Positions 6,067 through 44,354 of a stretch of 64,000 nt of DNA are shown in pieces. Numbering within the stretch: position 1 is the first letter of the stretch; each line of letters begins with the position of its first letter. Source of the DNA: Dictyostelium discoideum (Eukaryota); contig CM000151.3 of NCBI GenBank assembly GCA_000004695.1, positions 352,001 to 416,000 on the forward strand. The letters run 5' to 3'. The notes below the pieces were generated by a model. That model was not told the origin of the DNA and searched no databases. It saw nothing but the letters and a program-made list of their open reading frames with translations. The position numbers and the translations under genes are program-made.

Positions 6067-8898
6067 ATGAAAAATAATAATAAAAATAATAATAATAATA
6101 ATTTAGAAAATGAAAATGATATTGATGATAGTGAATTAGAAAAAAAGAGTTTAAAATCAATTAAAGAGATTGCTCAATCATATAGTATATCAACAACCAA
6201 TTTAAAAAAAGCAGAAATAATTGAAAAGATTAAATCAATAGTTAAAAGAAAAAGAGAATATGAAGAAGAACAAGAACAAAAAGAAAATGTTAATTCATTT
6301 AATAAAATTATTAAATTAACAATTACAGATAATATTGAACCCACTGAAATATTATTTTGGAAATTATTTAGAAATAAAGCAATTTATAAAAAGATATTCT
6401 CATTTATGGATAACCAATTCACAATAAGTTATGACTCAATAGATGATATATGTAAATTAGTAAATTCAAATCAAGTCAATTTAATAAGAGAAAAAGTTTA
6501 TAGAAATTGTAGATATTTACACTTCCATCCAAATCAGTATCATAACCATATTGCGGATATTCATTTTTTAGTGAAATTATTTTCAACAATTAAAGAAGAC
6601 GATTATAGATTCTATAGAAACTTTTTTAATGAAGAGAATGATTATTTTAGTTCACCAAATCATATAACACAAGCATCAATTATTTCAAAGAGATTACAAG
6701 TTTTTAAATTATTTGTAAATGAATTCAATTATGAACCAACAAAAAAAGATCTTCTATATTCAATTATTTCAGGTTCAAACAAATTCATTAAATATATATT
6801 AGAATTAAATTCACCAAATTCAGTTTTATTTGATAGAAAAATAGTTGATACTGATTTTAAAGATTTCTATGCTAAAGGATTTGGAAGTAATTATCCTACT
6901 AAAGAAGATAGTTTTTTCAAAGGGTTTTTATGTTTTTTAAATAACATTAACCTTGATGAAAATGATAGAGATCAATATTATAAGTTATTAATTGGTCAAT
7001 CCATTCATAACCCATATTCAGGTTATGGTTTTCAAATTAATGAAAAGTCAACATTAAAATCATTAATCACCACTGCTAGATTAATTTTAAAATTAAAAAC
7101 ACCATCCGCATCATACAAAGTACAATTTAAAGAAGAATGTTTCCCAAAAGTATTAAAAAAAATCGAAGCAGTCGCAACAATTGAAGAGATTGATAATTTC
7201 ATAAAGAAAATTGATAAAGTGAACTTAAAATCATTTTTAGATGATCCTATCAATTTTAATAATAGTGATGATAATAATGAAATTAAAAATTTTATAAAGA
7301 AATTATTAAAATTATATTATTTAAATTTTAGTATTGAACTATCAAATACTTTATACTTTTGTTATTATCATGAAGATTCCAATGATGATTATAAAGTTTT
7401 TCATTTTCATCATTTAATTGAAACTGCATTTAGATTTGGAAATTATGAAATTTTAGAATCATATGAAACAATCAATTGCCTACATTTTTTACCAGGAATT
7501 GGTCAAGATCATAGTAATCAAAATCACGATAGTCATCGTTATAAAGTTTTATTTTCACATTGTTTTAATAAAGGGAAAAAGATTAAATTCATTGATCACA
7601 TAATTCAAAGAACCATTCAACAACCAGAACCTGGATTTCAAATTTATTTCTTGTATATGCTTGTAATTCATAATAATATAGAGTTGGTAAAATATTATTC
7701 AAATAAAGTTGGTAAAAATATACAAGTAGAATCTATTGGAAGATTAACTCCACCAACCTATTATATCGAATCAATAGAGATGTTAGAATATTTATTTTAC
7801 AATCAATGTAATTACTTTAGAGATGTGTTTTTTGATGGCAAAAAAAGTACATTTTATAAAAATTTAGAATTATTAAAACATTTTGAATCATTATTAAATA
7901 AATCAAAATTAGGATGTGGTAGTGGTAATTGTAGTGGTATGCATTCTTATAATGGTCTTGTTAGCTTTATAAAAGGTATGGGCTTTGGAAGTGGTATATA
8001 TGGCTCTTTTGAGTATAAATCAAATAAGAATTATGTAGATTTTGCAAAACACTTTGCTTCAAATCCACAAATTTACAAGGGTTATACATTTGATTACGAG
8101 CATTTGTTTTTATTATTTACTACTCCTGTATCATCATCATCATCATTTTCATCTAAAATTTCAATTAACTTTGAAACTTTAAGAAATTTATTAATTAACG
8201 CATATTCTTTTGGAAGAAGCCCAATCTTTGAAAGATCAAAACCAACACACACACAACACCATTATTCAAGGGAATATTTAAAATTTTTTGATTGGATGTG
8301 TATAAATTATAGTCATGAAATTGGAGATCGAAGTTGTAGATTCTTGTATACAAATGAAGAAAGATATAAATACCATTTACTTATTGCAGTTGATAGAATA
8401 GATCTTGACAAAGATAATTATTATAATGGAGGTAATGATCAAGAGGAAGGAAATATTAGTGTTTATATTGAAAGATTGAATTCCTTAACATATGATGTCA
8501 TATATTTCACCCCATATTTATATGAAATTAATAATTTTAAATTTTTAAATTGGTTTTTAACAATCATTGAAAAGTATCACAATTCCAAATCAACATCATC
8601 TCATGATAAATCTATTATGGAGTCAATGGTTTTCACATTTATGGAATATATTACATTACATTCAAAATTACAAATACTTGAATACATTCATCATAATTTT
8701 CATTTCATTTTAAAGAAACAATCAGATGGTGGAATATTAAATATTGGAGAATTAAAATCTTTTATATTTTCATCACTTAAAAGAGATTCAATTAAAATTT
8801 CTAAATTCCTTTTTCAATTTATTACCATCACTAAAAATGAATTTGGTAAATATTCAAATGAAAAAACAAAATCATATTTTAAAAATATGTTTAAATAA
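6067..8898 (+). CDS. intact member of lineage-specific SAP-like-motif protein family (943 aa)
   Basis: True ATG at 6067. The single long ORF is colinear with the other paralogs: N-terminal LEKKSLKSIKEIAQSYSISTTNLKKAEIIEKIKS, KRKREYEEEQ, ITDNIEPTEILFWKLFRN, and the C-terminal block TPYLYEINNFKFLNWFLTII...GGILNI.ELKSF...FLFQFITITKNEF. The gene is intronless. Confidence 0.75.
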   Translation: MKNNNKNNNNNNLENENDIDDSELEKKSLKSIKEIAQSYSISTTNLKKAEIIEKIKSIVKRKREYEEEQEQKENVNSFNKIIKLTITDNIEPTEILFWKLFRNKAIYKKIFSFMDNQFTISYDSIDDICKLVNSNQVNLIREKVYRNCRYLHFHPNQYHNHIADIHFLVKLFSTIKEDDYRFYRNFFNEENDYFSSPNHITQASIISKRLQVFKLFVNEFNYEPTKKDLLYSIISGSNKFIKYILELNSPNSVLFDRKIVDTDFKDFYAKGFGSNYPTKEDSFFKGFLCFLNNINLDENDRDQYYKLLIGQSIHNPYSGYGFQINEKSTLKSLITTARLILKLKTPSASYKVQFKEECFPKVLKKIEAVATIEEIDNFIKKIDKVNLKSFLDDPINFNNSDDNNEIKNFIKKLLKLYYLNFSIELSNTLYFCYYHEDSNDDYKVFHFHHLIETAFRFGNYEILESYETINCLHFLPGIGQDHSNQNHDSHRYKVLFSHCFNKGKKIKFIDHIIQRTIQQPEPGFQIYFLYMLVIHNNIELVKYYSNKVGKNIQVESIGRLTPPTYYIESIEMLEYLFYNQCNYFRDVFFDGKKSTFYKNLELLKHFESLLNKSKLGCGSGNCSGMHSYNGLVSFIKGMGFGSGIYGSFEYKSNKNYVDFAKHFASNPQIYKGYTFDYEHLFLLFTTPVSSSSSFSSKISINFETLRNLLINAYSFGRSPIFERSKPTHTQHHYSREYLKFFDWMCINYSHEIGDRSCRFLYTNEERYKYHLLIAVDRIDLDKDNYYNGGNDQEEGNISVYIERLNSLTYDVIYFTPYLYEINNFKFLNWFLTIIEKYHNSKSTSSHDKSIMESMVFTFMEYITLHSKLQILEYIHHNFHFILKKQSDGGILNIGELKSFIFSSLKRDSIKISKFLFQFITITKNEFGKYSNEKTKSYFKNMFK

Positions 8899-9018: not shown

Positions 9019-9240
9019 TTACCACTTCACTATCAGCGCTACCACCACAACTTCAATCAGCGCCGCCACCACTTCTACTATAAGCGCCACCACCACTTCT
9101 ACTATCAGCACTAACACCACAACTTTAATCAACGCTACCACCACAACTTTAATCAGCGCTAACACCACTTCTACTATAAGCGCCACCACCACTTCTACTA
9201 TCAGCACTACTACTTCTATTAGAACTACCACTATAAACAC
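9019..9240. repeat. 24-bp minisatellite (about 9 units: cagcgctaccaccacaacttcaat variants)
   Basis: Direct tandem repetition is visible in the sequence. A plus-strand frame would read (ISATTTSTIS)n. Confidence 0.8.
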
Positions 9241-12285: not shown

Positions 12286-13066
12286 TTAAAAATAATTAAT
12301 TAAAACTAATAAGGTTTTTTATTAGAATTAAGGAGATCTAAAGCTGTTGGACCGATTGGAGAGCCGGTTTATGTTACCAATAGCACCAGCATTTCTGAGA
12401 CCTACAATGGGTTTTTCACCATCAGTTTGGATGATTGTTTGTATAAAATCCGTGATAAAACCAATAATACTGAAGACTTCTTTCAATATGTTAGAGAACT
12501 TTTGGAAAGTGGATTTTGCAAGCCTGGTTCATTATTGGTAATGGACAATGCTCCAATTCACGGTGGTATCGAAGCTTTAAATGCACTATTTGAATTGTTT
12601 AATCAATATTCCGTTCAATTGATATTTCTTCCTTCCTATTCTCCAGAGTTGAATCCCATTGAGCGTTTCTTTGGCTATATCAAGAACCATTTCTACCGAG
12701 AACGTAATTCCCATGGGTCCTTCCTTGATGAGATTATTGACACTATCGATAATTCTCTCATTAAAAACAAAGAACTGTTCATTGGATTTTATCGCCAAAG
12801 CCTAAACTTCTGGTCTGAAAAAAAAAGAAATCAATACCAAAGAAAAAGGTGAAAAAAGAAAAAATAATAAAAAAAAAAAAATAATAAAAAAAAAAAAACA
12901 AATAAAAAAAAAAAAAAAAAAAAAAGTGTTTGATTTGAAAAATTTAAAAAAAAAAATTAAAAAGTGTTTGATTTGGCTAATCCGCACAATAACAAATCTT
13001 CAACCCCTCTCAAAAAAAAAAAAAAAATGAAAATAAAAAAAAAAAGTGAAAATAAAAATAAAAATA

Positions 13067-24500: not shown

Positions 24501-24941
24501 CTAATTAAAAATATCATTGTTGTAAAAATAAATAAATAAATAAATATATAAAAAATAATAATGAGATTAATAAAAGTTTTTTTTTTTAATTTTTTTTTTT
24601 AATGATTAATTTATTTTAAGAAGATTAATTTTTTTAATGATTAGTTTATTTTAAGAAGAACTTTTTTTTTTCTAATTTATTTTTTAATTAAAAAAAAAAG
24701 GATTTTATGAAGCTGAAATAATTATAAAGAAACCCAAAATTATGGAAATTACAAACAAAACAATTGAAGCAGTGGCCAAAGCTTTTGCATTCTTGTTATT
24801 TGATTTTAAGTAACGGATGTTAATTAACCATATACAACTAACAAAGAAACCTTTTCATAAACATATAAAATAAAAATAATTACTATTATTAGTTTTTTCT
24901 TTTTTCTTTTTTATTTATTTTTTTTTTTATAAAAGACATAC

Positions 24942-25284
24942 CAAGAATAAAAATAATCAATGAAGAATTAAAATGAGATTCATCATCATCAACACTAATA
25001 GTTATAATAGCATTTGGAGGTGGATAGTATTGTGGAGATTGAAGAACAATTTTTGGTGGTTGTTGTATTTCTTGTGAATATTGTGTGACTACAATTGGTA
25101 TACCTTGGGATGAAAATGTTTGGTGATGGTGTGAATCTAATTTTTCAATTTGAGGAGTATATGTTGTATTTACATTGTTTAAGTAAATATTATCATTTCT
25201 ATTATTATTATTATTATTATTATTTAAATTTTGGTTGTGGAATGAAGAATTTTCTTCATTCAATTGAATATAATCAGTTCCCAT
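24942..25284 (-). CDS. small Pro/Asn-rich protein, exon 1 (paralog B); putative tail-anchor exon at about 24720..24830
   Basis: ATG at 25284 starts MGTDYIQLNEENSSFHNQNLNNNNNNN...PPKIVLQSPQYYPPPN...SLIIFILG, followed by a GTATGT donor. The tail exon encodes YLKSNNKNAKALATASIVLFVISIILGFFIIISAS*. Confidence 0.5.
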
Positions 25285-25671: not shown

Positions 25672-28080
25672 GGTTTTTTTTTTTTTTTTGATATAAATAA
25701 ACTATTGTAGTATAAAATTAGTATGTTATTTTTATTTATTTATTTTAGGTTTTTTAGTTTTTGTGAATTTAAAATGGTATGTTATTTTAGATTAGGTAAT
25801 TAATAATTAATTGGTGGTGTAATTGTTGGAATTGGTTCATTTGTGTTTATGCTCCATTCTTTTTTAAATTTTTTGATGGTTTCGGACCATTGGGTTTCTT
25901 TTTGAGTTTTTATGAGGTTGTTTTTAATTGAGTATTGGTTAAAGTTTGATAATGTTCTTGAATATTCCAATCTTATTAGCTTGTGCCATTTTGATTTTAA
26001 TATATCATAATCTAGTGTTGTGTTGTTTATTTGGTTGTTCCAATTATCAATTGATTGAGTTATATTGATGTCAAATAATGATTTGAATAACCATATCCAT
26101 ATTTGGTGAATAACTAATGAGATTATGTTCCAATATGCATGTGTTCTGACTAGATCAAGATTTGTGTTTATATAATTCCAGTTGAACCTGTATTTTTTAT
26201 ATTGTGCGTTTTCTGCAAAATGAAAATTAATATTGATAGTTGGATCTGGTTTAAATGCTTTGTTGTTTGTTTGTGGTTTATAAATGAGTGTGTATAATTT
26301 TGTTGTTTGGTTTTTTGTTAGTGACCAGTTTTTGTTTCCATTGCAATTTTTATATATAAAATATTTTAATTTGTCGTGGTTTATGAAGTAGATTGTGTGC
26401 TGACAATTGAAAAACAAATGACCATAGGGATCATTATTCATTTCATTGTTGCAAATGGGGCAAACTTTGTTGAGTAGATGATTAATCGGAAGACATCTAG
26501 CATGGAATCTTTGCATTGTATCACGGCCTTTTGGATCTTTTAGCTTTTGAATTTTGACAAATAGTTGGTCGTATGTGTATTTCCATAATAGTTGTATTGA
26601 TTGTTGGTGCGAAGTAAGAAGTAGATCTGAATATTTCTTTCCAATATAGTCTTTTGATTTACATTGATGATTGTTGAGTATTGTCGAGTAGATTTCTTTG
26701 AGTGTTGGTGGTAGTGAAATATTATTTGTTGTTAATGTTTGAGAGGTTTGGTTTTTTATTAATATTGGTTAAAGGGTTTGAACTTTATCTTTTAGATGTC
26801 CAATTTGAGTTGCATAGTTTTCCCATTCTTTTTTTATTTTTATAAGGTATGGAGAAGAGATTGATTTGTTAATAATTTGATCCATCCAACTTATCATGTA
26901 TATTGAATTGTTTGCAGATTTATGCATTTGTAAAAATCTGTTGTATATCCAAATCTTTTGAGCAACTTGTCGTAATTGTATATTCCACATACCCCAACCA
27001 CCTTCTTTTAATGGTTTTAATGATCTATCATAACACATCAAAGGTATTTTTGCACGTGAATGGATGGTTGATGTGTTATTTTCAATGGAATTGGTATTGA
27101 GAGTTGGTGATTCAGAATTTGCGGGAGAATTCATAAACCATGAGATTAATTTATTAATTTGAATTTCTTCATCTTTTGTAAATTCTTCAAGGTATGATAA
27201 ATATGTTATTGGTGATAGTGAGTAGGTGTTTATGATGGTTGTTTTTGTTTTTAATGTTGTGCCACTAGTTTTCCATAGTACTAATGATTTGATCAGTGTT
27301 TTCATTGTTTCTGGTAATTTCCTATGTAAACCATTATGATTAAAGAAATAGCCAATGAACTCTTTCTGATTGATCTTTTTTGGTTATTGGAATTCTTTTT
27401 GATTGTGGAATGTTGTTTATTATGTGTTTATCAGTGATTTTGTGGTGGTTGATTTCTATTATTGCACTTTTGTCAAAATTTAATGATGATGATGTTGAAG
27501 CGCAGAAATTATTTGAAATGTTTGATTGATTGTTGTTGTTGTTCGTAGGTGATGTTGTATGTTGTAGAGTCGTCTGCAAATTGGGTAAATTTAATTTTAA
27601 TTTGTGGTAATCCAATTATTGTATTGTCTGCATTTATTGTTCTTGCTAATATTTCAATTACAATTACAAATAGAGTGGCTGAGATTGGGTCACCTTGTTT
27701 TACACCTCTTTTAATATCGAATTTTCTGGTCGTTTTACCATTAATTGAAATTTTTGCTTGTGGAGTCAGATAATAGCTTGTGGATTAAATTTATTAATTT
27801 TATTGGTATACCAATATGAATTAATGTTCTTTTAATACTATCGTGAGAGATAGAATCAAATGCTTTGAAGAAGTCAAATAGTGTGATGATACCAGGGAGG
27901 TTTTTAGATTTGAGGTAGTTGATTAATTCATTGATGTTGATGATGTTGTCTATGATGAATCTGTGGGGTACGAAACCAGTTTGGTTGATGTTGATGATCT
28001 GACTACAGTGAGAATTGGTTTAACTTGGTTTAAATGATTAATGTAGAATGCATTTGTAACGTGCATTCTACATAAACATA
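25672..28080 (-). mobile_element. 5'-truncated TRE3-type non-LTR retrotransposon (copy 2)
   Basis: Minus-strand ORFs 25800..26516 (CCHC: FHARCLPINHLLNKVCPICNNEMNNDPYGHLFFNC) and 26769..27305 are colinear with the C-terminal part of copy-1 ORF2. An RT fragment lies at 27330..28020. A T17 run at 25672-25688 is its likely poly(A) tail (plus-strand poly(T)). Confidence 0.6.
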
Positions 28081-28084
28081 AGAA

Positions 28085-28735
28085 AAGATGGATATTATCA
28101 CCTGGTACTGCAAATGACCATGAAGCAATCAATATTATCAATCATTTAATAACTAATCACAATAACACATCAATCAATCAATTCCCAAACTGGTCAAAAG
28201 TAAAATCAAAAATTATTAAAACTCTAAAAAACTATCAATATAACAAAGACAAACAAACTCAACGTGCAAAACAAATACTATTAGAAAAAGCAGCAAAATT
28301 CAAACATCTTGAAGAACAATGCATCGCTGAATACAACATTATATGTAACAAAAACAAATTACATCAAAACCACACAAACATATTAAAAAACATATAAATG
28401 GAGAAATACCTAGCAAGTATCTATCAGCAATACTAAACAAAAGATCAAAAGATGCAAAAATTGCATCAATCTAATATGGTAACATCATTACATCCGACCC
28501 CGACCAAATTGAAAATGCGTTTGTTGAATTCTACACAAATCTATATAGCTTACAAATATGTTGTCCAATTACTCACCAGCTCATGCTAAACACATGGCCC
28601 ATCATAAAAAATGAATATTGGAATGGTTTAGACTCACCATTTATACAAGATGAAGTTGAAGCTGCAATTAAAACCTGTAACCCCAACAAATCACCCGATA
28701 CAGTTGAAATCTCCTGCGATAATAGATACATGTTG
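28085..28735 (+). mobile_element. inverted TRE3 ORF2 fragment (EN-RT linker region), frameshifted
   Basis: The plus-strand translation ...IENAFVEFYTNLYSLQ...NEYWNGLDSPFIQDEVEAAIKTCNPNKSPDTVEIS matches copy-1 ORF2 ...IEEEYVKYYSNLYDYKEDDPLSHYEMLENW...EILEVIKQLNPHKSPGPDGIP. The junction with the minus-strand RT fragment carries a 10-bp hairpin (gtagaatgca/tgcattctac, 28046-28074). Confidence 0.5.
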
Positions 28736-28739
28736 GGAT

Positions 28740-29017
28740 TGGTTTGGTATTGGGTTTGTTGAGTGGTTGTGGAGAAGTGTTTGTAGTGAAGTTGCATATG
28801 AATTCTTTTTGATGGTATTATTTGATGCTGGTGCGTAAATTCCAAGAATACCAATTGGTAATTGATTTGGAAATATAACGTTTGCTAAAATAACTCTACC
28901 ATCAATTGTTGATATGTGTTTGAGTTTGAGTGTGTTTGGGTTATGGTTAATGATGATTACACCATTTCCTCGTTTGGTGACAGAGATGATGTGATCGGGA
29001 AAATCATGTTTAAGTTG

Positions 29018-29020
<3 letters not shown>
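28740..29020 (-). mobile_element. TRE3 endonuclease-domain fragment
   Basis: The minus-strand translation ...IDGRVILANVIFPNQLPIGILGIYAPA matches copy-1 EN ...IEGRLIISDILIKDTTTRILAIYAPA. Confidence 0.5.
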
Positions 29021-29095
<75 letters not shown>

Positions 29096-29549
29096 TGGAT
29101 TAACAAGATTGATATATGTCCATCTGTGTTAATACGAGTTTTATTTAATATTTATTTAAAGGCTTATCGTTTAAGCTGAAGGGTTATTTTAATCATATGA
29201 ATTGATCAAAAGATATAATATTTGGGAGAGATGATTCTGGAATACAATAGTAATTAGCTGTTGTTTTTCTTAGCTTGATCGTTGAAGTGAGAAGGATCTT
29301 AGGATCTTTGAAGTTATTATGGTCTTTTGCAGATAAGTTTTTCAGATCTTTTGCTTTTTTGATGTATTCTAGAGTGGCCAATTTGTGCCATTTCTTTAGA
29401 AGGGAGCTGTATGATAGTGATTCATCTGTTAAAGGATCTTTACTGTATATTTGATTGCAAATTCAAATTCAAATGTTGTGGAGGATAAGGGCCATTAAGT
29501 TTCTATATGCGAATGATCTGGTTAGATCATAGTCTATTGCTTTATATTT

Positions 29550-30278
29550 TCATTCAAAGTATTCTTTGTGGAATCTGTGGTTGGCGTAATCTGCATTCAC
29601 TTCTTGATCTTTTTTGGCTGTCGGTGATAATTTTGGAGTTATTCTATTAATGAAATTGTTATTTTGCCTAATTCTTGTATGGTGCCAGTTTTTACCTTTG
29701 CCTGTGGTAATATAGATGAAATTTTTGAGTTTATTTATTTTTATGAATTGTTTTGTTTTCTTACATGAGAAGAACAGGTGGCCGTATGGGTCTTTGCTCA
29801 TATCTTCTTTGCAGAGTGGGCATTGTTTGTTGTGAAGGTAGTTTATTGGAAGGCATCTGGCATGGAATCTAAATATTGTGTCTCTTGTTTTAGGGTCTTT
29901 TATCTTCAGTATGTTGTTGAAGAGTTGATTATAGCTGTAGCCTCTTAAGTTTAGAGATGATTGGAATTCCGTTTTAGGGATGGTTGGATTTTGGTCTTGA
30001 ATTGTTGTATACCATTCTGCCAGTGAAAGTGGTTGTCCATTTTCGTTTTTTATGGATGTGAGATTATTGTTGAAGATTGCTTTTGTGATTCTTATTTTGT
30101 TCCATTCGTCTAAGTTTTCTTTTAGGTATCTGGATGTGAATTTGTTTTTTTGGATCTGATATTCCCAGCTTTTGTCATAGCTAAAAGTAGGGGGCTGGAA
30201 CATTTGGAATATAGAATTGAGACAACTGGCGCAGAAACTTTGGATCATAAACCAGTTCATCCTAGCACTAGAAACCAA
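29550..30278 (-). CDS. TRE3 ORF2 C-terminal continuation (CCHC zinc finger), separated from the main ORF by a stop or frameshift
   Basis: It contains FRFHARCLPINYLHNKQCPLCKEDMSKDPYGHLFFSC. In copy 2 the homologous region is contiguous with the upstream ORF, so copy 1 probably carries an inactivating mutation or a sequencing error near 30279-30296. Confidence 0.6.
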   Translation of the reverse strand: MVSSARMNWFMIQSFCASCLNSIFQMFQPPTFSYDKSWEYQIQKNKFTSRYLKENLDEWNKIRITKAIFNNNLTSIKNENGQPLSLAEWYTTIQDQNPTIPKTEFQSSLNLRGYSYNQLFNNILKIKDPKTRDTIFRFHARCLPINYLHNKQCPLCKEDMSKDPYGHLFFSCKKTKQFIKINKLKNFIYITTGKGKNWHHTRIRQNNNFINRITPKLSPTAKKDQEVNADYANHRFHKEYFE

Positions 30279-30296
30279 ACAAACAAACTCATCTCA

Positions 30297-32873
30297 TCAC
30301 AGAATAACTTGAAATCCACTAGCATTTTTGTTGTTTGGTGCCGATAAAAACCATTCGACTAATTTATTGATTTGGTTTAATTCCTCTTCCTTAAAGTTCT
30401 CTACATATGAATAGTAGGTTAATTTAGAGAGTGCGAATGCTTTGAGGATGTTGGTTTTGGTTTTGATTGTTGAGTCAGTGGTTTTCCATAGTACTAAGGA
30501 TGATCTTATTGTGTTTAATATTTCTGGCATTTTTCTTGTTATCCCTTTACCTGTGAAGAAGTATCCCAAGTATCTTTCTGGATTTGTAGATATTGGAATT
30601 CTTTGGTTGGTATTGTCTGGGTTGCCTATAAGAATTGATGAAGATTTGTCGATGTTTAGTTTTGAGGAAGTGGCTTTGCAAAATGAATTGAAGTGTTGTA
30701 GTACTAATTCAAGTTGTTGAGAGTCTGGGACCATTGAAGCCGAGTCGTCTGCAAAGCTTTGGAATTTCTCTCTGTGGTTGCTGTTGTTTAGAGGAAGGCC
30801 AGTAATTCGATCATCTTGTAAAATTTTTCTAGCTAAAGCCTCTATTACAAGGACGAACAGTGTGGGTGATAGTGGATCTCCTTGTTTAACTCCTCTTTTG
30901 ATCTCAAAGGGTATAGTAGTTCTACCATTAATTTCAATTCTTGCTTCAGATTTGGTGAGTAGATTCATTATCAGGTTGATTATATTGGTTGGAATGTTGA
31001 TGTGTTGTAGTGATCTAAGTATTGAACCGTGTGAGATCGAGTCAAAAGCTTTTTCGAAATCATATAGTGTAATTATTCCGTTAATTCTTTTATCATTACA
31101 ATAGTTGATTAATTCGTTCATTGATATGATATTATCTATAATGAATCTGCCTGGTACGAAACCTTTTTGATTGTGGTTGATCACTTTCGTTAGTATTGGG
31201 ATTATTCTATTGTTTATTAGCTTTGAGTGGATTTTATATATACAGTTAGCCAGTGTAATTGGTCTTCTGTTTTTGATTAGTTCGGGGTCTCCCTTTTTAG
31301 GTATCGTGATAATGAGGCCTTCTTTGTAATTTTTGCTAATTAGATGAGGATTTCTTAGAGTGTCGTTGAATGCTGAGGCCAGTATTGGAGCTAGTTTTTC
31401 TTTGTGTGTTATGTAGAATAAGTTTGGAATTCCATCTGGACCTGGAGATTTGTGTGGGTTCAGTTGTTTTATTACTTCTAGGATTTCTTGTGAGGTGAAT
31501 TCATTTTCAAGGTTGTCCCATGTTGAGTCCCTGGTCACTGTCCAATTTTCCAACATTTCGTAATGAGATAGTGGGTCATCTTCTTTGTAGTCATAAAGAT
31601 TTGAGTAATATTTTACGTATTCTTCTTCGATCAATTCCTGTTTGTTAATTGTTCTACCTTGTGCATCTTTTACTGCGTTGATGGTGAAATCATTGTGTCT
31701 TTTCTTGATTCTCGCGGAGATGTACTTGAGTGAGGTTTCTTCGCAATAGTTGTTCAATTCTTGTTTAAGTTGTTCTTCTCTTTTTTTAGATTCATTTATT
31801 GCTGAAAGGGTTGCGAAGGCTTGGTCTTTAAATTCTGTCTCTAGTAGGGAGATTAGATTTTTGATGTTTGCCTTATTGTTGTAGTCGTTTTGTTTTTGAA
31901 ATTCGGTGTATAGTTGTTTTATTTTGTTTAGTAAGCTGTTGAGTTGAGAGAAGGAAATAGAGTTATGGTTGGATGACAGCTCCCTTGAATAATCGTTAAG
32001 TAGGAAGTCTATTTTCTTAAGCATTATGCTTGAGAGGATTGAGGATTTTTTTAATCTCCATCTGCGCTTGTTCATCTGTATGTTGGGTAGAGTGAAAGTG
32101 GTTGATAGGAAGTTGTGATCTGATAGAGGTATGTCGTTAATTTTTGGGGGGATTAGGTTCCTTAAGTATAATTGGCTGTAGTTGATTAAGCTATTGTTAA
32201 GGTATATTCTGTCTAGTCTCCTTTCCAAGATTCTTGTGAGGTTATTGTTTGTGTTGTGTATCGTTCTTGAGAAGGTGGGTCTTTTATTTAGTTGGTCCAT
32301 ATCCATTAGGTTATTTGAAATTCTGATGGCTTCGATTACTGTGGCCATCTCATCTGGGGATTGTGTTGTCAGGTTGCCTTGGTCATCATTTGATGTGTGA
32401 TTGTCATTGAAGTCTAAACAGTTGAAGTCGCCTGCTATGATGTCGATGTTTTTATTAGGGTTAGACGTTAGGTTGTGGTATTGGTTGTTGAAGTGTTTAT
32501 TTAGTGTTGATGCTAGTGTTTTTCTTTTATCAGGTTGGGCCGGGGCGTATATGGCCAAGATTCTCGTTGTGGTATCTTTTATTAGAATGTCTGATATTAT
32601 TAGTCTACCTTCTATTATGAATATTGGTGAGAGTTTTATGTTTTGGTTGTTGTGGTTTAGTATTCCTATTCCGTTGCCTCTGTTGGTTGCGCTAATGATG
32701 GAGCCAGGAAATAGCTGGTGTGCTTGTGTTGCGTCGGCGTTGAGTTCATTGACTATGGTTAGTGCCAATGAGTTTGGGGGGGATTGGGATTTGATAAAGT
32801 CTGTTTTGTTTTTGAAGGAGGTGTCAGTACCCCAACCTCTGACATTCCATTGGTTGATTTTGATTACTACCAT
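30297..32873 (-). CDS. TRE3 ORF2 (endonuclease + reverse transcriptase), main part
   Basis: The 858-aa ORF begins MVVIKINQWNVRGWG (APE-type EN). RT motifs are ...PKKGDPELIKNRRPITLANCIYKI... and ...FADDSASM.... The minus-strand ATG at 32873 overlaps the end of ORF1. Confidence 0.8.
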   Translation of the reverse strand: MVVIKINQWNVRGWGTDTSFKNKTDFIKSQSPPNSLALTIVNELNADATQAHQLFPGSIISATNRGNGIGILNHNNQNIKLSPIFIIEGRLIISDILIKDTTTRILAIYAPAQPDKRKTLASTLNKHFNNQYHNLTSNPNKNIDIIAGDFNCLDFNDNHTSNDDQGNLTTQSPDEMATVIEAIRISNNLMDMDQLNKRPTFSRTIHNTNNNLTRILERRLDRIYLNNSLINYSQLYLRNLIPPKINDIPLSDHNFLSTTFTLPNIQMNKRRWRLKKSSILSSIMLKKIDFLLNDYSRELSSNHNSISFSQLNSLLNKIKQLYTEFQKQNDYNNKANIKNLISLLETEFKDQAFATLSAINESKKREEQLKQELNNYCEETSLKYISARIKKRHNDFTINAVKDAQGRTINKQELIEEEYVKYYSNLYDYKEDDPLSHYEMLENWTVTRDSTWDNLENEFTSQEILEVIKQLNPHKSPGPDGIPNLFYITHKEKLAPILASAFNDTLRNPHLISKNYKEGLIITIPKKGDPELIKNRRPITLANCIYKIHSKLINNRIIPILTKVINHNQKGFVPGRFIIDNIISMNELINYCNDKRINGIITLYDFEKAFDSISHGSILRSLQHINIPTNIINLIMNLLTKSEARIEINGRTTIPFEIKRGVKQGDPLSPTLFVLVIEALARKILQDDRITGLPLNNSNHREKFQSFADDSASMVPDSQQLELVLQHFNSFCKATSSKLNIDKSSSILIGNPDNTNQRIPISTNPERYLGYFFTGKGITRKMPEILNTIRSSLVLWKTTDSTIKTKTNILKAFALSKLTYYSYVENFKEEELNQINKLVEWFLSAPNNKNASGFQVIL

Positions 32874-34116
32874 TATGAGATGATATCGATCTCCTCTTGG
32901 GAGTCGTATAGCTGCGGTTTGGATGGTGAAGGGTAGATACTCTCTATGAAGCTCTCAATGATTCCTTTCCTTTCTTTATTGACAGGTGTCTTAGGGGTGG
33001 ATGGGATGTAAGGGTTGCTTCTGTTTATTGTTGGTGAGAGTTGGGTGACCTCGTTGTTTGAGTGGATTTCCTCGTTCTTGCGTTTATGTGATGGAGGGAT
33101 GTTTGGTGTCTTCTCTCTGTTTTCCGAGGATGAATGGATGTTAGTGCTCGTTTTGTTGGTATTGTCTTTTTGGATGGCGTTGGATGTTGTGGTAGTGGTT
33201 GTGGTGGGTTTGACAGATTGAGATTCTGCTTGGTTTTTGGGGGGAAGAGGTTGAGAGGACTTTTTTGATTGGGCTTTTTTCTCTTGGGTTGATTGTTTAT
33301 CAGACTGATTGTTTGCTGGGTCATTTGTTTGTTGTTGTGGTTTTGGTTGAGAGGATTTGATTGCTATCCTGTTTTGGGTGTTGGGAGGATCATCTGTCAT
33401 CTCATCTTCTAATGGTTCTTCCGTGTTGTTTGACTCTACTTTCTTATTTTTCTTTTGTGAGGAGTAGGTTTTGGTGGCCGTTCTGATGGTAAAGTTGGCG
33501 ATTTCTGTATTGTGTTGGCCAGATTTCATTTGATCGCCTATTTTGCATTCTATTAGACCGAATACTAGGAGGTGGTAGGTGGAGTATGTAGTATGGTATA
33601 TTGCATAGGGTATTTCTTCTGCAAAGGCAGTTTTGATGAGGGCGTCCACTATTCCTGCCTTTTCTTTTGGAATTCTTACTCTTCCTGTGAGGACGTGGTA
33701 GTCTCTACTGGAGGTGATGAAAGTTCCCAATTTGCTTCTATCTCTAATGATATTTAGGAGAGATTGTCGTTTTTAATCATCAGGTGTATCATTTTTCTAG
33801 TTCCTTTGCCTATGTATATCTTGTCGATTGGGATATCGTAGTTTGAGAGTGTTTTTCTCATTTCTTCTAACCCCATGAGATCCATTTTGGGGAATTCGAG
33901 TGTAATTGGGTAGAATCCGTTGTTTTTCTCGTAGGTTGAGAGCGCAGTCATGTTCAATATGGTCTCGCAGTATTTGGAGATGTCTTTGAGGCCTATTGAT
34001 AATTTGGGGTAGGTCTCCTTTATCTCTGCTGTTTTTGTGGAGAATTCCTTAATGAAGTTCTCTGATGCCTCGTCCATATGGGGGGCCATTTTAGCCGCGT
34101 CTGCGTAGGAATTCAT
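32873..34116 (-). CDS. TRE3 ORF1 (two frames: 33754..34116 and 32873..33730)
   Basis: ATG at 34116 starts MNSYADAAKMAPHMDEASENFIKEF... There is a frame change near 33730-33754, after which the basic, Thr/Gln/Pro-rich ORF1 continues to 32873. Confidence 0.55.
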
Positions 34117-34365
34117 CTCGATGGGATTCCTTTGAATCGGCGATTTGGTAAGTTAGATCTGTAGATCGTGGTGGATTGGTGATTTTTTTTGAAAGATTGG
34201 TTAAAATTGACCGAGATTAAGGATAGAAAAGGATGAATTACTTTTCACGTGTATCTTGTATCCTCTTGATCGCGGTACGGTTTTTTTTTCTCTTTTTATT
34301 GAAGTAACATTTTTCACGTGTATCTTGTATCCTCTTGATCGCGGTACGGTTTTTTTTTTAAGTTT

Positions 34366-34397
<32 letters not shown>

Positions 34398-34412
34398 CAG
34401 CAACTTAAAAAG

Positions 34413-34486
34413 TATTCAGAGCGGGAATCGAACCCACGACCTAATCCGTGTTAAGGATTCGTGATAACCGACTACACCATCCGAAC
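34413..34486 (-). tRNA. tRNA-Val (anticodon AAC)
   Basis: The minus-strand sequence is GTTCGGATGGTGTAGTCGGTTATCACGAATCCTTAACACGGATTAGGTCGTGGGTTCGATTCCCGCTCTGAATA. It forms a cloverleaf with a 7-bp acceptor stem (two G-U pairs), a TTAACAC anticodon loop (AAC), AGGTC in the variable region, and a GGGTTCGATTCCC T-arm. A T5 Pol III terminator follows immediately (CTTTTT). It closely resembles eukaryotic tRNA-Val(AAC). Confidence 0.85.
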
Positions 34487-34514
34487 TAATCTATAAAAAT
34501 TATTTTTAAACCGT

Positions 34515-34782
34515 TGTAATAAAGCTTGTTAGCTTTATAAATATATATAATTAATAATTATATAATTGAATAATACTTTGTTATCTTTATTTAATATTAA
34601 TTTATATTTATAATATTCAATATTGTTTATAAAATTATTCTTTAGTATTTATATTATTTATAATGAGTTGACAGTATTATTATTATTATTATTATTATAT
34701 TATTTAAATGTGTGTCAACTATAATTAGTAATGTAATATGCATATTTAATATCTATTAATTTTATAGAGTAACTTTATTACA
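34515..34782. repeat. 3' LTR (relative to the minus-strand element)
   Basis: Identical to 36887..37154. Confidence 0.85.
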
Positions 34783-35379
34783 TATCCCCCCCTTTTAGTT
34801 GAAAAAAATTTTTCAATCTTTTAATATAAAACACATCATGATTTTTAATATTATCCAATACTAATTTGAATTTTAAATCGCTAACTCTCTCATGTACTTT
34901 GAAAAGACCTTCCCAAGATTTATTGAGCTTTACTGGACCAACAGTGGATTGTAAATAGACATAATCTCCTACTTGAATATTTGAACGAGAAACTTTTTTA
35001 TTAATTTGTGATAATTGGTCTTTACCAAGATTATCCTTAATGAGACAAGGACGTTTGAGGTTATTATTTACAATTTGGGCGAAATTATGAGCAAAATCTA
35101 ATCTTGATAAATTTGTACATGGATTTCTTATTAATGGTTGAATTGAGGTTATTTGTGATTTAATTATTGAATTCTCTGTTTGATTTAATGATATTGATTT
35201 TAATGGTAAATTTGATGTTATTGGTGAATCTATTGGTTCTTGGAATAAGAATTCTGGAATATCGTAATCTATTGGTAGTTGTTCTTCAATAGTTGGATAC
35301 GATTTGATTGATAGTATATGATGAGAATTAAAATTTTCAATTAAATGATCAGTATCTGTTAATAATTCTGATTTTGATG

Positions 35380-35410
<31 letters not shown>

Positions 35411-36705
35411 TGAATAATCAGATACTGTTTTAAATATAGTTTGTATACATGGTTGGGTTTCTTTAGATATTAATTTGGTACCAACATTGAATTCAAGATT
35501 CTTAATGATCATTTCTTTAAAATCAATGACTAAATTTAATCCAATTATTGTATCAATGCCAAATATACAATCAATTGATGTATCATTATCTTTAACAACA
35601 TTAACTTTAACTCTAGCGAATGCTTTACCTAATTTAATTGTTGTGTTACTTATTCCAATGATTTTGATTTCATTATTTGATGCTGATTTAACAGAATATT
35701 GTTTATTTTCAATCTTTAATTTTAACTTTTTAGCAATACTTTCCCAAACAATAGTAAGTGATGAACCAGTATCAATCAAACCTCTAACATTTTTATTATT
35801 TATTAATAAAGCTGCATTCATACTATCTATTCCAATTGAATTAATTGTACTATTATTAACCATTGTAATTGCATTAGTGCTATGATTATTATATGATTGT
35901 TTATTCTCATTATAATTATTCTTTTTATCTTTAGACCAACACTCTTGAATTACATGACCTTTCTTTTTGCAATATTTACAAAATTTTGTGATTGAATTTA
36001 CTTGATTTTGTGGTGCTTTATAAGGGGATGATTGTGGTGACATTTGTGGTGATCGATTATAATATTGATTTTTAAAAATTGGTGTTGAAATTTCTTCAGA
36101 TTCAATTGATTGTTGTTCGTTTTGAGATGTAACATATTGAGGGGATGTTGCAGAATAACCAGAACCCGAACCTAGATATCTTTGATTACCAAATTCTTGC
36201 AACGTCTTTGCAACTAATTGACCAGTGTACATTGATCTACCTTTGATACGAATTGAACCATCTTCACAAGACTTTGCAATATCTATTGCTCTTTTTAATG
36301 ATTTTGGTGCACATTTTGTAATTTCAATACCCAATTCAGTACCAACAGCTGAATAAAACAATTGTATTTTAAACTTTTCTGAAATATCAACTGCTGAACA
36401 TTTTGATAGAAATTTACCAATTAATATATCTAATGTATTGTATTTATATTCTCCCAACTTTGTTAATTCTGTTAAATCATCACTATCACCAATATCAAAA
36501 GCATCTTTAAGATCTTCAATTATCTCCATTGCTGTTAAGTCTGTATCCAATGTTGCGGCATATTCCAATGCATTGTTTCTTAGTTTTCTAATAATATCAG
36601 CTTTCGATATTTCCTCGCCATGAATTAGTAAGAGTAAGTGTTTGAATTTACGAAATGATAAACCTTTTCCATCACCCGAAAAAATTACGTTTTCATTATT
36701 ACTCA

Positions 36706-36706
<1 letters not shown>
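34778..36706 (-). CDS. LTR-element polyprotein remnant: Gag (CCHC) - aspartic protease - integrase C-terminal region
   Basis: ATG at 36706. It contains the CCHC knuckle CKYCKKKGHVIQEC and the protease motif LIDTGSSLTIVW. The C-terminal ...VGDYVYLQ...KLNKSWEGLFKVHERVSDLKFKLVLDNIKNHDVFYIKRLK resembles the Ty3/gypsy integrase C-terminus (GPF/Y...VFHVS.LK). No RT, RNase H or IN core lies between them. Confidence 0.7.
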
Positions 36707-36776
<70 letters not shown>

Positions 36777-36886
36777 TATTAAATTAAATTTAATCTAATG
36801 TAAAATTTTAATTGATTGAATAATTTGATAACTTTATATTTATAGTATATTTTTTTTTTTTTTTTTTGAAAGACGATGTCGCCAAA

Positions 36887-37154
36887 TGTAATAAAGCTTG
36901 TTAGCTTTATAAATATATATAATTAATAATTATATAATTGAATAATACTTTGTTATCTTTATTTAATATTAATTTATATTTATAATATTCAATATTGTTT
37001 ATAAAATTATTCTTTAGTATTTATATTATTTATAATGAGTTGACAGTATTATTATTATTATTATTATTATATTATTTAAATGTGTGTCAACTATAATTAG
37101 TAATGTAATATGCATATTTAATATCTATTAATTTTATAGAGTAACTTTATTACA
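36887..37154. repeat. 5' LTR (relative to the minus-strand element)
   Basis: Identical to 34515..34782. Confidence 0.85.
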
Positions 37155-37412
37155 CCGTAATAATTATTAAAAATAGTTTAAAAGAATCATCCAAGTTGGC
37201 ACTTTTTTGTAATTACAAAAATTATATATGGGGACTCATATAAAATAATATGAACAATTTTGAAAAGTGCACTTAGATAGTTTTTATAATAACTAAATTT
37301 TTTTTTTTTTTTTTTGAGATATTTCATTATTTCCGAAATAATTTTTAAAATAAATTTTTTTTTTTTTTTTTCTTTTTTAAAAAAAAAACAATGGATAGAG
37401 ATAAAAATTATA

Positions 37413-40448
<3,036 letters not shown>

Positions 40449-41192: not shown

Positions 41193-44354
<3,162 letters not shown>

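Follow-up and report, generated by a model that had tools for sequence, protein, structure and literature searches.

Two families of retrotransposons that insert next to tRNA genes in Dictyostelium discoideum are the closest described counterparts of the elements analyzed here, which lie on either side of a tRNA-Val(AAC) gene in a 64,000-nucleotide stretch of this genome (GCA_000004695.1, contig CM000151.3, positions 352,001–416,000; the whole stretch is called the window, and positions are counted from its first nucleotide). DGLT-A, a retrotransposon with long terminal repeats (LTRs), inserts 13–33 bp upstream of tRNA coding regions in either orientation (PMC5006619 Table 1; PMC5911963). In AX4 the distance is 13–18 bp for 18 of 20 copies (PMC6101501), and the mean distance upstream of the tRNA is 15 bp. 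The published element has a consensus of 5054 bp, TG...CA LTRs of ~265 bp, and one open reading frame (ORF) that encodes GAG, protease (PR), reverse transcriptase (RT), RNase H, and integrase (IN). None of the nine non-solo DGLT-A copies of AX4 is full length, and the family may be inactive; solo LTRs of DGLT-A were formerly called H3R. Two-hybrid work suggests that the DGLT-A RNase H and the N-terminal domain of its integrase bind the TFIIIC subunit Tfc4. TRE3-type non-LTR retrotransposons, on the other side of tRNA genes, insert 40–150 bp downstream and in tRNA orientation, with a range of 14–228 bp for TRE3-A in a genome census (PMC5006619 Table 1; PMC5911963). TRE3-A (formerly Tdd-3), the most abundant TRE3, has a published consensus of 5229 bp and contains two ORFs, the second encoding an apurinic/apyrimidinic endonuclease (APE) along with RT and a zinc finger, followed by a poly(A) tail; its target-site duplications vary. 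Published work also reports that a TRE is present at 61% of the tRNA genes and that tandems exist, and sequential targeting yielding TRE3 tandems has been described. The phenomenon, both families, their distance windows and orientation rules, and the tandem stacking are thus already published.

Outside Dictyostelium, Ty3 of Saccharomyces cerevisiae is cited in the literature as a convergent analogue of DGLT-A. Both are Ty3/gypsy LTR elements that integrate upstream of tRNA genes at a distance of a few tens of bp, for Ty3 at the RNA polymerase III (Pol III) initiation site. However, the contacts of the Ty3 integrase are with TFIIIB, in contrast to the contact with Tfc4 (TFIIIC) reported for the RNase H and integrase N-terminus of DGLT-A, and GAG3 and POL3 of Ty3 are in separate frames, unlike the single ORF of the window element. 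Ty3 duplications measure 5 bp, compared with 4 bp at the window element. A parallel of a different kind is BARE-2 of barley, an internally deleted non-autonomous LTR element that has kept its LTRs, primer-binding site (PBS), polypurine tract (PPT), and an intact, constrained capsid ORF, and that needs a related autonomous partner for RT and integrase. At the locus described here, the tRNA-Val gene has very probably been targeted independently by two retrotransposon classes that recognize the Pol III transcription complex, with a short DGLT-A-type element upstream and two TRE3 elements downstream.

A tRNA-Val Gene between Two Classes of Retroelements

A preliminary description of the window had proposed a tRNA-Val(AAC) gene at 34413–34486 as a target of both modes of tRNA-directed integration at once, and both are indeed present, DGLT-A upstream and TRE3 downstream. 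The gene was called on the minus strand by two programs: ARAGORN placed tRNA-Val(AAC) at 34412–34486, and Rfam family RF00005 matched 34413–34486 with 57.9 bits (E-value 1.7e-10; gathering score 29). By sequence reading, its A box (34468–34479) and B box (GGTTCGATTCC, 34424–34434) are intact, and a T5 run located 2 nt beyond the tRNA 3′ end (34407–34411) serves as the Pol III terminator; the gene is unaltered by the insertions flanking it on either side. No second tRNA gene was found within the 64 kb. The tRNA-Val gene, the LTR element, and the TRE3 elements all reside on the minus strand, so that the LTR element shares the orientation of the tRNA.

The distance between the edge of the LTR element and tRNA position +1 is 28 nt (34487–34514), including the tRNA-proximal copy of its target-site duplication (34511–34514), which reads CCGT on the plus strand. 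Downstream, the 5′ end of the proximal TRE3 lies 54 bp from the 3′ end of the tRNA and 49 bp from the T5 terminator. Both distances, which the preliminary description had left to be compared with the published windows of DGLT-A and TRE3, are inside them, as is the orientation of the proximal TRE3. Within ~23.8–42 kb, the part of the window studied closely, every retroelement sequence detected adjoins the sole tRNA gene, and further LTR or TRE3-A copies do not occur elsewhere in the 64-kb window.

The Upstream LTR Element

The LTR retrotransposon, recognized by its LTR pair, its 4-bp duplication, and its homology to a longer element (L009) and to sibling copies, occupies 34515–37154 on the minus strand. 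With 2640 bp it is far shorter than the DGLT-A consensus. In element sense, the 5′ LTR is located at 36887–37154 and the 3′ LTR, which is adjacent to the tRNA, at 34515–34782; both have 268 nt, are 100% identical to each other, and show the termini TGTAAT...ATTACA. The distal copy of the duplication CCGT (plus strand) follows at 37155–37158. The LTR boundaries did not shift, and the duplication and the distance to the tRNA given in the preliminary description were exact. By sequence reading, the PBS TGGCGACATCGTC (36872–36884) begins 2 nt beyond the 5′ LTR, after TT, and the PPT AAAAGGGGGGGATA (34783–34796) abuts the 3′ LTR, a placement of both motifs that agrees with the published DGLT-A layout (PMC5006619).

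A single ORF of 642 aa (34778–36706, minus strand) was delineated by translation, Pfam, and BLASTP. It is identical to DDB_G0271456 (XP_645785), an annotated gene of D. discoideum AX4, the record of which we take to be that of AX4 chromosome 2. As in DGLT-A, the ORF begins with gag-PR: an N-terminal gag with a CX2CX4HX4C knuckle is followed by an aspartic protease (aa 301–385; Pfam, 8e-11). The middle part (aa ~421–530) is without homology, and aa 531–635 represent a remnant of the integrase C-terminal GPY/F-SH3 segment, with a weak Pfam match to a Tf2-type integrase SH3 domain at the very C-terminus. Directly after this segment the ORF ends, 2–3 codons inside the LTR. Pfam detected neither RVT, RNase H, nor rve in the 642-aa ORF; RT, RNase H, and the integrase core, all encoded by the DGLT-A consensus, are absent. 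A Chromo match was likewise not obtained, and the absence of a chromodomain is shared with DGLT-A and distinguishes this family from Skipper.

Membership in DGLT-A was judged via two relatives, the protein P0098 and the sibling copy L006, in place of an alignment to DGLT-A reference DNA. P0098, encoded by the L009 element, comes from another D. discoideum strain and is a gag-PR-RT-IN polyprotein of 1176 aa. In BLASTP, residues 1–420 of the window ORF (gag-PR) align with it at 74% identity, and residues 531–635 align at 47% with its last 114 residues. L006 carries the exact GPY/F motif published for Dd_DGLT-A (IQTGDFVYLHTPYSQTSIGP...GPFKVQEK; alignment in the Spaller 2016 supplement), to which the C-terminus of P0098 is a near match. 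Moreover, the LTRs of L006 are 99.6% identical to those of the window element, and its protease and middle region are almost identical, while the LTR of L009 is 87% identical. The LTR element is very probably a deletion derivative of DGLT-A that retains gag, protease, and the C-terminal end of the integrase, and not an autonomous member.

Sibling Copies and an Empty Allele

Four further short copies share the architecture of the window element, and each contains one intact ORF of 632–636 aa. All of them adjoin the 5′ end of a tRNA gene and are bordered by a 4-bp duplication. The copy in L002 (9569–12165) is located 14 bp from tRNA-Ile(AAT), with the duplication TTTC, and the copy in L007 (5509–8180) 12 bp from tRNA-Leu(CAA), with the duplication TCCG; in both, the 5′ LTR faces the tRNA. 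The copies in L006 (5562–8179) and L008 (5513–8179) turn their 3′ LTR toward tRNA-Leu(TAA) and tRNA-Leu(AAG), respectively, each at 14 bp and with the duplications CTAA and CATA. Together with the longer L009 element (4247 bp), which lies 10 bp upstream of tRNA-Ala(AGC), five other copies are thus found 10–14 bp upstream of a tRNA-Ile, three tRNA-Leu, and a tRNA-Ala gene, in both orientations. The 28 bp at tRNA-Val are a true outlier, yet inside the published DGLT-A range. Element orientation was considered as the cause of this offset and rejected, since the 3′ LTR faces the tRNA in copies at 10 and 14 bp, too.

An empty-site allele, which the preliminary description had suggested looking for in other strains, was found in the assembly GCA_054859355.1 of a divergent D. 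discoideum strain. This locus (L010) aligns collinearly with the window on either side, with ~91% identity, and contains a tRNA-Val(AAC) gene (6095–6169) identical to that of the window, with neither insertion present. Its upstream flank is uninterrupted (TAATCGATAAAAATTATTTTTTTTAACCGAAAATGATTTT) and corresponds to the empty site that had been reconstructed from the window, which agrees with the window flanks and, at the ~9% divergence between the strains, with L010. Its downstream flank (ACTTTTAAGTTGTCGAGGAACATAGACGCAGGATCGATTCTCG...) is homologous to the sequence that follows the tRNA in a second assembly of the occupied locus (L001, see below). The LTR insertion is polymorphic, occupied in the AX4 lineage and empty in L010. 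Another locus, L011 (P0102), was rejected as a syntenic counterpart because it is a paralogue without a tRNA.

The Downstream TRE3 Elements

The proximal downstream element (29019–34358, minus strand) is a non-LTR retrotransposon of the TRE3-A type, identified by Pfam, its ORF map, and 98% identity to a copy in L004. Its 5′ end is placed either at 34358, where an A10 run starts, or at 34349 (CCGTACC...). After a 5′ untranslated region (UTR), ORF1 begins with an ATG at 34116 and is split by a stop at 33754. ORF2 (32954 to 29550) is also split and encodes APE, RT, and zinc finger in this order, as in TRE3-A; the Pfam match is strong for RVT_1 (4.9e-34) and weak for Exo_endo_phos (1.4e-3), and a C-x2-C...H-x4-C motif is visible at ~29.8 kb. 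A 3′ UTR and, by sequence reading, an A72 tail (29019–29090, minus strand) follow. The L004 copy, which measures 5228 bp without its tail, lies 67 bp downstream of tRNA-Thr(AGT) and 34 bp beyond an external B box (GGTTCGAAACC), and is flanked by a duplication of 15–16 bp. As to the abundance of this subfamily, one protein cluster comprises 79 member sequences. For P0009, the TRE3 protein of AX4, no gene record was found. In common with TRE3-A, the proximal element has two ORFs, a poly(A) tail, a target-site duplication from a family in which these vary, a position ~50–70 bp downstream in tRNA orientation, and a tandem arrangement with an older TRE3.

What sets the proximal element apart from TRE3-A are a 69-bp duplication at its 5′ end, the frameshifted ORF1, and an inversion with a deletion in ORF2; it is defective on all three counts. 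The duplication (34290–34358, minus strand) combines A10 and the initial 39 nt of the element with the 21-mer ATGTTACTTCAATAAAAAGAG, which recurs neither in the window nor in any fetched locus. The 5′ module is single in the L004 copy and duplicated in the window copy; read-through from a donor locus and template switching are possible origins. The ORF2 lesion, a micro-inversion of 124 bp (30181–30304, minus strand) with a 33-bp deletion relative to the L004 and L002 copies, splits the ORF and is present in both assemblies of the locus. According to the preliminary description, non-LTR elements begin 45–125 bp past the terminator. One such start stands, at 49 bp, while the supposed start at 125 bp is the second 69-bp module of the same element. 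An interpretation of the repeated 48-nt module as two tandem TRE3-A insertions was rejected, because the sequence after the poly(A) is no TRE3-A continuation and one target-site duplication brackets both modules. This duplication has 11 bp (AGCAACTTAAA); its 3′ copy is located at 29009–29019 (minus strand), and its 5′ copy is intact in L001, whereas the window retains 8 nt of it (AACTTAAA, 34357–34364).

The second downstream element is a 5′-truncated and rearranged TRE3 of another subfamily (25674–29008, minus strand), which was delimited by sequence reading, self-comparison, and tblastn. The TRE3 cluster postulated in the preliminary description does contain more than one element, but its members are only these two. 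The distal TRE3 is ~68% identical to the proximal one at the nucleotide level (self-matches of 67–69%), belongs to a different subfamily, and is more degraded. It consists of an APE fragment (29002 to 28697, minus strand), an inverted internal segment on the plus strand (28060–28696, where opposite-strand tblastn covers 28361–28702 only and the bound at 28060 was set by eye), and a part reaching from the RT to the end with an A16 tail (28004 to 25690, minus strand). Deletions flank the inverted segment. This layout of an inverted segment plus a 3′ part resembles the products of “twin priming” by L1. A target-site duplication of the distal TRE3 was looked for and not found. TRE3-A came after the distal TRE3, because its duplication brackets the proximal element only and the distal one is of a different, more degraded subfamily; it now lies between the tRNA and this older TRE3, in line with the sequential targeting already described.

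Assembly Differences in the Downstream Spacer

The locus (L001, L003) is also covered by GCA_054883475.1, another assembly from the same lineage. In the host DNA, this assembly matches the window at or near 100% identity, with differences in homopolymer lengths. Over ~22 kb compared with L001, 13 single-nucleotide polymorphisms (SNPs) were found, all within TRE3-A (29051–34364), and one more mismatch lies in 12 kb of the other sequence. This clustering suggests a repeat-driven consensus or polishing error in one of the assemblies.

The two assemblies also disagree between the tRNA and the proximal TRE3. In the window, the order on the minus strand from the tRNA outward is C, TTTTT, AAGTTGCTG, A31, CAAACTT, A10, and CCGTACCGCG..., from which the non-LTR element continues to its A72 tail. 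The stretch made up of the A31 run (34367–34397) and CA measures 33 nt (34365–34397, minus strand), compared with 50 nt in L001 (12310–12359). In L001, the 50 nt are GC-rich and form the inner part of a perfect palindrome (AAGTTGCTGGGACCTAGACGCAGGAT, CGACTCTGTAGT, ATCCTGCGTCTAGGTCCCAGCAACTT) with arms of ~26–31 nt that include the terminator. As L010 shows, the native 3′ flank of the tRNA, with the B-box-like motif GGATCGACTCT, makes up the left arm and loop of this palindrome, and the A31 run of the window stands in for ~45 nt of this flank, including the motif. The A31 spacer is probably an error of the reference assembly or a secondary change, as the comparison with both other loci indicates. 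The right arm (12339–12364) is an inverted duplicate of the tRNA 3′ flank that reaches to the TRE3-A duplication. This inverted copy arose in the AX4 lineage, because it is absent from the empty allele L010, and its position suggests a fold-back event at the 5′ junction as the first TRE3 inserted. Downstream distances at this locus consequently need a caveat regarding the spacer, and the missing native 3′ flank in the window would mislead analyses of the distance between TRE3 elements and external B boxes; the newer assembly has this flank.

Integration History and Alternative Explanations

The following history is proposed. A DGLT-A-family element would have integrated at the tetranucleotide at −25 to −28, creating the 4-bp duplication. 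RT, RNase H, and integrase were presumably supplied in trans to this short element, because it encodes none of them complete. Downstream, an older TRE3 would have inserted just beyond the B-box-like motif of the native 3′ flank, in a 5′-truncated form that left rearranged junctions behind. A TRE3-A element would later have inserted between the tRNA and this older TRE3, in tRNA orientation and with an 11-bp duplication, and the older TRE3 is now distal because TRE3-A landed nearer the tRNA.

The juxtaposition could alternatively be passive, with random insertions, or with a tRNA gene that was carried along in a repeat block by segmental duplication or repeat assembly. Regions rich in transposable elements are hard to assemble, and the two assemblies do differ by the 13 SNPs in TRE3-A and by the spacer. 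The flanking host DNA, however, is (nearly) 100% identical between them, both the LTR element and TRE3-A have clean target-site duplications, the empty allele combines an identical tRNA with matching flanks, and five more LTR-family copies lie 10–14 bp from other tRNA genes. Passive juxtaposition, to which we assign next to no probability, is effectively refuted by the empty allele and the replicated positions. Chance in particular is no credible explanation, because the retroelements abut only the tRNA, without other copies in the window, and because the additional copies of the LTR family keep so close to tRNA 5′ ends. It is likewise highly improbable, if slightly less so, that the upstream element belongs to another LTR family, for example Skipper-2 (formerly DGLT-P), or to a new one. 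Such an assignment could draw on the loss of the domains that underlie the family phylogeny, namely RT, RNase H, and integrase core, and on the C-terminal integrase segment, which departs from the published GPY/F motif and shares just 47% identity with P0098. Against it stand the similarity of gag-PR to P0098 and of the LTR to L009 (74 and 87%, respectively), the exact DGLT-A motif in the sibling L006 with its nearly identical LTRs, the PBS 2 nt past the LTR, the lack of a chromodomain match, and the position upstream of the tRNA, whereas Skipper-2 occurs downstream.

The large upstream offset might also be secondary, had the AT-rich spacer expanded or gained an insertion afterwards. This spacer is of low-complexity A/T sequence and prone to indels, and the other copies examined are all found at 10–14 bp; but the empty allele has the homologous tetranucleotide CCGA at −27 to −30, so that the target was already distant before integration. 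We regard a secondary origin as very unlikely, and because of this tetranucleotide the 28-bp offset is original to the integration. Several points nevertheless weigh against the independent targeting of tRNA-Val by two retrotransposon classes, or against details of it. The targeting geometry of the 28-bp event is atypical and unexplained, as it falls beyond both the 13–18 bp mode of DGLT-A and the 10–14 bp of the five other copies. The tRNA–TRE3 spacer differs between the two assemblies of the locus, and with it the downstream distance of the proximal TRE3, for which the window gives 54 bp from the tRNA end and L001 gives 70 bp. TRE3-A was assigned on the basis of length, copy number, and position and not by alignment to a named reference, and the distal TRE3 has no subfamily assignment. 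Finally, no autonomous DGLT-A is known in AX4, which makes the helper in trans hypothetical.

A Putative gag-Protease Lineage of DGLT-A

The short copies allow some conclusions on the past of the upstream element. The cluster listing includes at least five AX4 genes of the short type (DDB_G0271456, DDB_G0279931, DDB_G0276009, DDB_G0277283, and the partial DDB_G0287455), and the ORF is intact (632–642 aa) in all five short copies examined, the window included. In alignments to L009, the 5′ homology ends at 7371 for the window and L002 copies, at 7371 for L006, and at 7412 for L007 and L008, and resumes at 9232, 9232, and 9233, respectively. The deletion endpoints of these three short subfamilies accordingly agree within 1 nt on the 3′ side and within ~40 nt on the 5′ side, while the subfamilies differ from one another by synonymous divergence (dS) of ~0.15–0.7. 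This comparison points to a single old deletion as the source of the short form rather than to repeated ones, because all three subfamilies lose homology to L009 at one place.

Nei–Gojobori estimates for the window copy and L007, whose overall dS is 0.67, gave ratios of non-synonymous to synonymous divergence (dN/dS) of 0.18 for gag and 0.24 for the protease, compared with 1.33 for the stretch in place of the RT and 0.50 for the C-terminal remnant of the integrase. Relative to L006, the window copy has a dS of ~0.02 in the protease and middle region, 0.16 in gag, and 0.57 in the C-terminal part, a pattern that suggests a mosaic produced by recombination. The LTRs within a copy are identical in both copies in which they were measured directly. 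A possibility that we put forward tentatively, and with more doubt than conviction, is that the short LTR element is no dead deletion product but part of an old, selectively maintained, non-autonomous gag-protease lineage of DGLT-A, which might have transposed via borrowed RT and integrase into a period without a known autonomous DGLT-A in AX4. No description of such a conserved short lineage was found in the literature covered, which did not include the primary description of DGLT-A from 2001. BARE-2 offers a precedent for this kind of element, but belongs to another host kingdom and superfamily context, and it has a partner of a type not known from AX4, where trans-mobilization is putative.

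Neighboring Genes

A tandem family of genes for proteins of ~1000 aa occupies 37413–40448, 41193–44354, and ~44.9–47.9 kb, with further copies near 0–7 and 49–54 kb. Their mutual nucleotide identity is 75–85%, and they contain long AAT/Asn repeats. Their relatives are named “Rho termination factor N-terminal domain-containing,” and the orthologues in GCA_054859355.1 are ~91% identical. The exact protein encoded by 41193–44354 had no match in the protein cluster collection. Just past the distal TRE3, two small genes on the minus strand (24889–25284 and ~23860) have near-identical starts (MGTDYIQLNEENSS...) and represent a local tandem duplication.

Implications

The locus illustrates the role of tRNA genes as safe harbours for retrotransposons in the gene-dense Dictyostelium genome, and adds no new principle to it. 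With an occupied and an empty allele, both duplications, and an order of events that can be read from the sequence, it is suited for teaching and as an assay locus. The DGLT-A population, which has been called merely “incomplete,” appears to include a conserved lineage that encodes gag and protease only, and this raises the question of its mobilizer. If such a maintained non-autonomous lineage exists, the atypical site at 28 bp could reflect the action of a heterologous or variant integrase. As a true outlier at −28, this copy is also a natural case for testing the model that tethering by Tfc4 sets the integration distance.

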